Origin: a virus
Lineage: Duplodnaviria; Heunggongvirae; Uroviricota; Caudoviricetes
DNA length: 36,138 bases
Strand: one strand, 5' to 3'
IMG/VR virus record: IMGVR_UViG_2563366848_000001
The notes beneath the pieces were generated by a model, which was given only the letters and a program-made list of their open reading frames with translations, was not told the origin of the DNA and searched no databases. Positions 1,089-1,193 of the stretch are shown in pieces. Within the stretch, counting starts at the first letter, position 1. Each line of letters starts with the position of its first letter. The translations under genes were made by a program, and so were the position numbers.

Positions 1089-1193
1089 ATGCAAAAAATC
1101 AACCAAACCAGCGCAATGCCTGAAAAAACTGACGTTCACTGGAGTGGTCGGTTTAGCGTTGCACCAATGCTCGATGGGATTTACTACAAATAA
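1089..1193 (+). pseudogene. dusA: displaced dusA 5' fragment (34 codons, MQKINQTSAMPEKTDVHWSGRFSVAPMLDG then IYYK-stop) left at attL by integration
   Basis: Translation RFSVAPMLD matches RFSIAPMLD at the N-terminus of the full dusA at 35101; reading frame runs into phage DNA and stops after 4 codons. Confidence 0.55.
1149..1180 (+). other. attL (imperfect repeat shared with attR; identical core ATGCTCGA at about 1167-1174)
   Basis: Segment aligns with 35179-35210 with an 8-bp identical core flanked by partially matching sequence; lies at the prophage/chromosome junction. Confidence 0.55.

Follow-up and report, generated by a model that had tools for sequence, protein, structure and literature searches.

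Farrugia et al. 2015 (NAR 43:4547, PMC4482086) defined the family of dusA-associated integrases (DAI), whose elements supply a new dusA 5' end on integration, the original 5' end being restored on excision. [quoted passage not shown] For the Stx phage phi1720a-02 (phi-stx2dact), Balasubramanian et al. 2019 (PMC6328086) described integration about 100 bp into dusA of C. rodentium, with a 7-base core, an in-frame 'PhidusA' ORF and an attP that was detected in vivo. Finally, Durand et al. 2021 (PMC8409611) reported that the PrtN-domain protein RdfN is the excisionase of dusA-specific elements and that IMEVchUSA3 provides the DusA of E. coli K12 with a new promoter as well as an N-terminus that has the same length of 35 residues.

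We analysed a window of 36,138 nt, i.e., the whole stretch of DNA at its full length, which shows 3 mismatches over 36,138 bases when compared to E. coli B379 (NZ_CP090456.1, 4385150-4421287, reverse strand). These differences sit only at positions 3424, 14876 and 30698. On its left side, the window contains the 3' part of a DUF2713 gene, followed by a short dusA-like ORF. Phage genes of about 34 kb come next, then a minus-strand integrase gene and finally a full-length dusA (Table 1). We are highly confident that this arrangement results from a DAI-type phage integration in dusA, in which the element supplied a new 5' end and left the native start stranded at attL. The mechanism as such is already known, i.e., the locus is a faithful instance of the dusA-targeting systems published in 2015, 2019 and 2021.

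The DUF2713 gene and dusA show the same order in uninterrupted loci, and the intergenic stretch between the DUF2713 gene and the short dusA-like ORF measures 362 nt. In B379, H1 and STEC409, the DUF2713 gene beside dusA is annotated as a frameshifted pseudogene. The G+C content of the prophage is mostly 0.54-0.61 and thereby higher than in the E. coli flanks, which have 0.36 and 0.53. Both Rfam and tRNA scans of the whole window were without matches, so the att site in dusA is not of the tRNA type.

Table 1. Features of the dusA prophage locus (positions refer to the 36,138-nt window; a dot marks features given without a single strand).
Feature	Position	Strand	Basis or remark
Host flank: 3' part of DUF2713 (yjbM-type) gene, upstream of dusA	1..708	+	Pfam PF10897, E 4e-166
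Native dusA 5' end, codons 1-34 plus two bases of codon 35	1071..1174	+	identical to H1 dusA
Crossover core ATGCTCGA at attL	1167..1174	+	mismatches on both sides
Prophage	1175..35196	.	34,022 bp between cores; 34,030 bp as circle with one core
Phage-derived tail of stranded ORF (..D-G-I-Y-Y-K-stop)	1175..1193	+	attB mismatch begins at 1175
Putative IHF-consensus site AATCAATAAGTTA, P' arm, +28 from core	1195..1207	+	consensus match
Two direct GGGGTGCT repeats, putative arm-type integrase sites P'1/P'2	1217-1224, 1228-1235	+	copy excess, offsets kept
PrtN-family gene, RdfN-type excisionase homologue, 83 aa	1248..1499	-	PF11112, E 5.8e-26, residues 3-75
dusA-associated tyrosine integrase, 362 aa	33923..35011	-	Pfam PF00589, E 2.6e-19
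Three GGGGTGCT repeats, P arm (putative)	35033-35040 inverted; 35049-35056, 35061-35068 direct	.	offsets kept in five phages
Phage-supplied surrogate dusA 5' end, 32 codons	35101..35196	+	differs from attB at 44/96 positions
Hybrid dusA, 345 aa (native length)	35101..36138	+	Pfam Dus domain residues 30-340, E 2e-104
Crossover core ATGCTCGA at attR	35197..35204	+	alignment with attB

As reference for the uninterrupted locus, we used E. coli H1 (dusA of 1038 nt) in a three-way alignment with both junctions. The H1 attB equals attL through position 1174, with 1175 as first mismatch, and equals attR over 35197-36138 with 0 mismatches. That is, the identity to H1 switches exactly at 1174/35197, which confines the recombination joint to the 8 common bases ATGCTCGA, i.e., the sole block that is common to attB, attL, attR and the reconstructed attP. 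The prophage ends are thereby placed to the base (1175 and 35196). We also considered the 8-bp match as a chance repeat, which is ruled out by the exact switch points with regard to attB. The attB joint reads ...GCACCA-ATGCTCGA-CTGGACGG..., while the reconstructed attP joint reads ...CGCGCCG-ATGCTCGA-TGGGATTT.... Compared by eye, attL (GCACCAATGCTCGATGGGATTTAC) and attR (GCGCCGATGCTCGACTGGACGGAC) agree at 16 of 24 positions around the core. The window's attB and the published C. rodentium attB, taken from the other strand, match at 16/19 positions, again by eye.

Within the 96 nt upstream of the core, the 5' ends at attL and attR are identical at 52/96 nt in an ungapped comparison. None of 100,000 shuffles reaches that value (maximum 45), and 16 of the 35 N-terminal residues are identical as well. 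Thus, the two dusA 5' ends are homologous and no chance look-alikes. A reading of the locus based on the sequence alone (in the following, the sequence-only reading) had proposed an identical core within longer, partly matching junctions, and both parts are found, i.e., ATGCTCGA at both junctions and flanks that share 52/96 nt. The refuting case named there, an uninterrupted dusA locus that fits neither junction, is not what we observe: the H1 locus fits both exactly, up to the core on one side and from the core on the other.

The ORF reported there for 1089-1193 is present and reads MQKINQTSAMPEKTDVHWSGRFSVAPMLDGIYYK* (34 codons plus stop). Its start, however, has to be shifted, since PGAP starts the intact dusA at ATG 1071 (MHGNSEMQK...), i.e., 18 nt before ATG 1089, such that the ORF covers 1071-1193 with 40 codons. 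In 5/5 phage attP sites, the dusA-like ORF starts with an ATG located exactly 96 nt upstream of the core, and an ATG at this distance is likewise observed in 31/32 integrase-adjacent dusA genes of other species. This conservation backs 1071 as the real dusA start. In B379, PGAP labels 1071-1175 as pseudogene 'tRNA-dihydrouridine synthase, missing C-terminus'. The count of four phage-derived codons also needs correction: the ORF ends with five non-native residues (G-I-Y-Y-K), and phage DNA already starts at 1175. This base is the third one of the Asp codon, where the change from GAC to GAT is synonymous. A tail of this kind ends the attP-spanning ORF in free phages, and the tail residues past the core vary among elements (GIYYK, RMYRF, GTY, GSYTL).

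The integrase gene is located 89 nt from the start of the hybrid dusA in divergent orientation. Its product shows 79% identity to the integrases of the Yersinia phages YeP1-3 and 68-70% to those of mEp460, phi1720a-02 and several Stx phages (mEp460: 68.2% over 99% of the length; phi1720a-02: 69.6%). Within a five-sequence integrase alignment, R222, H306, R309, H332 and Y342 are invariant; from their motif context, we take these residues to be the RHRH tetrad plus the nucleophilic Tyr. The mEp460 integrase is among the DAI matches listed by Farrugia et al. (PMC4482086). Beside this homology to a named DAI, we find the tyrosine recombinase motif, the replacement of the dusA 5' end and semi-conserved att repeats, all of which are features of the family. 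At the level of sequence, the integrase is shown to be a DAI family member. A relative of the integrase is not positioned beside a dusA 5' end in 25/57 analysable loci, several of which are found in Xenorhabdus, Serratia and Pantoea. These loci agree with the alternative targets reported for the DAI family.

For the N-terminus of the integrase, Pfam's Arm-DNA-bind_4 scores below its cut-off of 22.3 (12.9 bits, E 0.083), and a PDB sequence profile search with the integrase alignment provided matches for the catalytic domain only and none for the N-terminus. A single-sequence AF2 model of the integrase shows a strand-strand-strand-helix arrangement for residues 2-58, but is too unreliable for a fold search at a pLDDT of 42. 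Residues 1-60 are 92% identical between two integrases that share the arm repeat GGGGTGCT (remainder 72% and 81%). Across motif types, the same residues are the least conserved part of the protein with 52-70% identity.

Since the megablast search with the prophage gave partial matches only, attP sites were taken from phages found via the integrase protein. Within the window, GGGGTGCT occurs 7 times vs. 1.0 expected, and 6/7 copies are located at the prophage ends. With respect to the first base of the core, the repeats of Table 1 have offsets of -164 (inverted), -148, -136, +50 and +61, an arrangement seen in five elements, i.e., repeats at matching offsets are also present in mEp460, SKA5, YeP1 and EKP1 (with +51 and +62 in two of the four). 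The repeat itself depends on the lineage: it is GGGAACC in mEp460 and SKA5, GGGGTGCT in YeP1 and GGTGTAC in EKP1. All three motif types recur at -148 in other genera, where the offsets -164 and -136 are found again as well. The sixth end-proximal copy of GGGGTGCT (34865-34872, minus strand) is part of the coding sequence of the integrase at a distance of 332 nt from the core, and could be either due to chance or an extra binding site.

The putative IHF site is the sole WATCAANNNNTTR match in the 36-kb window. An IHF-like site with 0-1 mismatch is found at +28 in mEp460, YeP1, EKP1, SKA5 and the STEC409 prophage (5/5). Furthermore, the repeats flank the core on both sides and differ from the core sequence, as is the case for heterobivalent (lambda-type) integrases with arm sites. 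We read the repeats as putative arm-type integrase sites for a putative N-terminal domain, complemented by an IHF bend. Together with the IHF-like site, the five GGGGTGCT copies may build a lambda-type intasome. The repeats could also bind RdfN or another protein instead of Int. The fixed attP layout with its lineage-specific repeat sequence is the one increment over published work, and a modest one; no description of the DAI arm layout was found in a literature search, which is not proof of its absence.

The hybrid dusA is annotated as intact DusA by PGAP, and its part from 35197 to 36138 is identical to the H1 dusA. When the replaced segment is compared to the solved DusA of T. thermophilus, only residues 27-35 align, 8/9 of which are unchanged. 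That is, from the 35 replaced residues only RFS(V/I)APMLD is within the conserved fold and contains one conservative change. The function of the hybrid DusA is probably retained, for which the beta-strand argument made by Farrugia et al. (PMC4482086) provides support. A consensus scan for sigma-70 promoters upstream of 35101 found none above shuffle expectation. By analogy to IMEVchUSA3, the hybrid dusA would be expressed from a phage-supplied promoter.

On the opposite side of attP, the stop codon end of the PrtN-family gene (1248) is 74 nt away from the attL core (1174). Judged by homology, this gene is an RdfN-type excisionase gene (rdfN). It shares 4 nt with the upstream SNF2 gene and is the last of ten minus-strand genes that extend from 8547 to 1248. 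An 18-nt operator-like repeat is found upstream of this run at 9137-9154. It is one of 3 copies of TACAATTTnnGTTGTATT (one inverted) around the LexA-family repressor gene (9286-9909, minus strand), the others being at 9956-9973 and 9999-10016, i.e., between the repressor gene and a divergent HTH gene. These copies are likely operators. The 740-nt stretch 8548-9285 is without annotated gene, and its two plus-strand ORFs are without PHROGs family match. The arrangement suggests that rdfN is under repressor control, such that the excisionase would be made on induction. Given that rdfN ends the leftward early operon, excision should be coupled to prophage induction.

The phage body combines a T7-like structural layout with a family A polymerase. 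More specifically, the structural genes (13943-31432) follow the order of T7-like podoviruses, i.e., head-tail connector, scaffold-like protein, major head protein, two tail proteins, internal virion proteins, terminase and tail fibre, here combined with a LexA-type repressor and an integrase. The two tail proteins correspond to phrog_394 and phrog_376 (PHROGs), where 'tail tubular protein' stems from a secondary match only, and the internal virion proteins include a 902-aa SLT-domain protein. Amid the genes for tail and internal virion proteins, a GNAT-family acetyltransferase gene is encoded at 20363-20812 (plus strand). A block of low G+C content (30001-33000, 0.40-0.44) covers the 3' end of the tail-fibre gene and an acyltransferase/O-acetyltransferase gene at 31494-32600 (plus strand, phrog_3333). 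The latter is a candidate moron for lysogenic conversion (O-antigen modification). Among deposited phages, megablast found no close relative, i.e., the best one covers at most 28% of the first 24 kb at 81% identity.

To which extent the attB site is occupied can be estimated with a 204-nt attB-spanning query, for which 1,028 of the 5,408 matching E. coli genomes show no single place that covers 80% of it. This number is rough, since mEp460-type surrogates resemble the native dusA enough to count as intact, and it fits a frequent occupation of the dusA site by various elements.

When judged on the window alone, the two N-termini are symmetric, i.e., the attR N-terminus could be the ancestral one in E. 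coli and the attL fragment a dusA-like piece brought by the phage. To this extent the sequence-only reading was right to call the ancestral N-terminus undecidable from the window. Other genomes, however, settle the question in favour of the attL copy as the native one. Many E. coli genomes with a PGAP-intact dusA match the flank and dusA 5' end at 700-1170 with 100% identity, and in H1 the attL-side identity continues through the core to 1174. In contrast, the attR 5' end together with the integrase (33923-35196) is found in only 3/5,426 complete E. coli genomes. It furthermore moves with the integrase: in Shimwellia pseudoproteus DSM 3038 (NZ_WBXP01000027.1), integrase, arm and surrogate 5' end are identical to the window over 1274/1274 nt, while the identity drops to 77.8% for dusA past the core, where position 35211 of the window is the first to differ. 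Homologous ORFs are also present in free phage genomes, i.e., mEp460, YeP1, EKP1 and SKA5 carry a dusA-like ORF of 38-40 codons across ATGCTCGA in their attP, and the SKA5 record names this ORF 'tRNA-dihydrouridine'. Since surrogate and integrase occur in Shimwellia and their homologues in free phages, the attR 5' end is cargo that moves between genera. An ancestral attR N-terminus is refuted by the intact E. coli loci, the H1 alignment, its rarity (3/5,426) and the Shimwellia locus, and we consider it extremely improbable. By comparison across genomes, we regard it as settled that the attL fragment is the displaced native dusA start and that the attR 5' end is phage-borne. The proposed replacement of the dusA 5' end by the prophage, with the native fragment left at attL, is thus borne out by the H1 alignment, the free phages and Shimwellia.

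Given real junctions, the prophage might still be a fixed relic with attL and attR as fossils, which would be in line with the rarity of the whole prophage (2/5,426 E. coli genomes at >=80% coverage) and with excision frequencies of <1e-7 for related islands (Farrugia et al., PMC4482086). We consider this rather unlikely: PGAP annotates 0 pseudogenes among the prophage genes, including int, rdfN, repressor, terminase and lysis genes, the cores are identical, and the five repeats as well as the IHF-like site are intact. Moreover, two isolates, a STEC from a pig and one from human pus, share this prophage at 99.9% identity. The int-attP module recurs with 100% identity in a different genus, which speaks for recent mobility. 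The Shimwellia identity over 1274/1274 nt points to a very recent cross-genus spread, and the prophage can presumably still excise. Another question is whether the stranded ORF or a transcript from the native promoter gained a function, e.g., by damping rdfN and thereby stabilising lysogeny. The antisense geometry noted by the sequence-only reading is confirmed, i.e., the stranded ORF and rdfN run towards each other and their stop codons are separated by 54 nt, and a consensus scan of the plus strand found no terminator-like site in 1071-1527, i.e., none until 1528. It is thus plausible that the native dusA promoter, if active, transcribes antisense into rdfN. YeP1 and EKP1 show the same convergence of dusA-like ORF and PrtN gene in their free genomes. 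It therefore belongs to the attP module itself and did not arise by accident on integration. On the other hand, the promoter scan around attL and the native dusA gave matches at chance level (vs. shuffles), other genes separate attL from the PrtN gene in mEp460-type prophages, and the tail residues past the core are not conserved. We thus judge an acquired function to be quite improbable. A more far-reaching idea also seems unlikely to us, namely that the attP of enterobacterial dusA-targeting phages is a rigid lambda-like intasome scaffold with the 96-nt dusA mimic as spacer between the core and three arm sites, and that the host dusA promoter captured on integration fires convergently into rdfN and helps to keep the prophage. 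In E. coli STEC409, which harbours a different dusA prophage, a gene with Panacea domain and a hypothetical gene are placed between attL and the PrtN gene. Both are co-oriented with the stranded dusA 5' end, such that the host dusA promoter could read them.

Our preferred reading is the DAI-type integration with a supplied 5' end and a stranded native start. According to this reading, a temperate phage of about 34 kb integrated site-specifically into codons 33-35 of the E. coli dusA via its DAI-family tyrosine integrase, with strand exchange within the 8-bp ATGCTCGA common to attP and attB. Beside int, the attP carries a start codon and a 32-codon mimic of the dusA 5' end, such that a full-length dusA of 345 aa is rebuilt at attR by integration. 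What stays at attL is the native promoter with the first 34 codons, as a dead-end ORF of 40 codons. Just inside attL, the RdfN-type excisionase gene ends the leftward early operon, and excision should be coupled to induction.

Although 34 kb apart, the "tRNA-dihydrouridine synthase" short pseudogene and the intact dusA represent the two halves of one integration. This matters little beyond correct annotation. The locus is a clean example of a phage that targets an essential-looking position within a gene without inactivating it. If confirmed by binding assays, the layout would turn into a concrete model of attP for an integrase family that is widespread, and could help the design of dusA-targeting integration vectors.

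Compared to the DAI elements of Farrugia et al. (PMC4482086), the window shows the same arrangement of an int gene divergent from the dusA 5' end, a new 5' end and the native end at the far junction, as well as semi-conserved 21-bp att repeats and a prtN homologue at the opposite end. E. coli is among the over-represented genera of that study. There is no difference in kind; only the phage body lacks a close deposited relative. For phi1720a-02, the published attB TCCAGTCGAGCATGGGAGC is, on the other strand, the same site as in the window and contains ATGCTCGA. Unlike the phage of the window, phi1720a-02 is a lambdoid Stx phage, and its core was given with 7 bases vs. the 8 shared here. From the Int identity, we would expect its arm repeat to be of the mEp460 type (GGGAACC) and not GGGGTGCT.

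As in the window, the PrtN-domain protein of IMEVchUSA3 is encoded on the other side of attP from int. IMEVchUSA3 is a mobilisable island, and an activator from an IncC plasmid drives its rdfN, whereas rdfN of the window closes a phage early operon that has operator-like repeats upstream of it, beside a LexA-family repressor gene. Finally, with regard to phage lambda, the integrase of the window is not part of the lambda Int family, but nearest to Rci according to Farrugia et al. In its layout, the attP resembles that of lambda, i.e., it shows short repeats on both arms that are distinct from the core and may serve as arm sites, an IHF-consensus site between the core and one arm, and an excisionase gene nearby.
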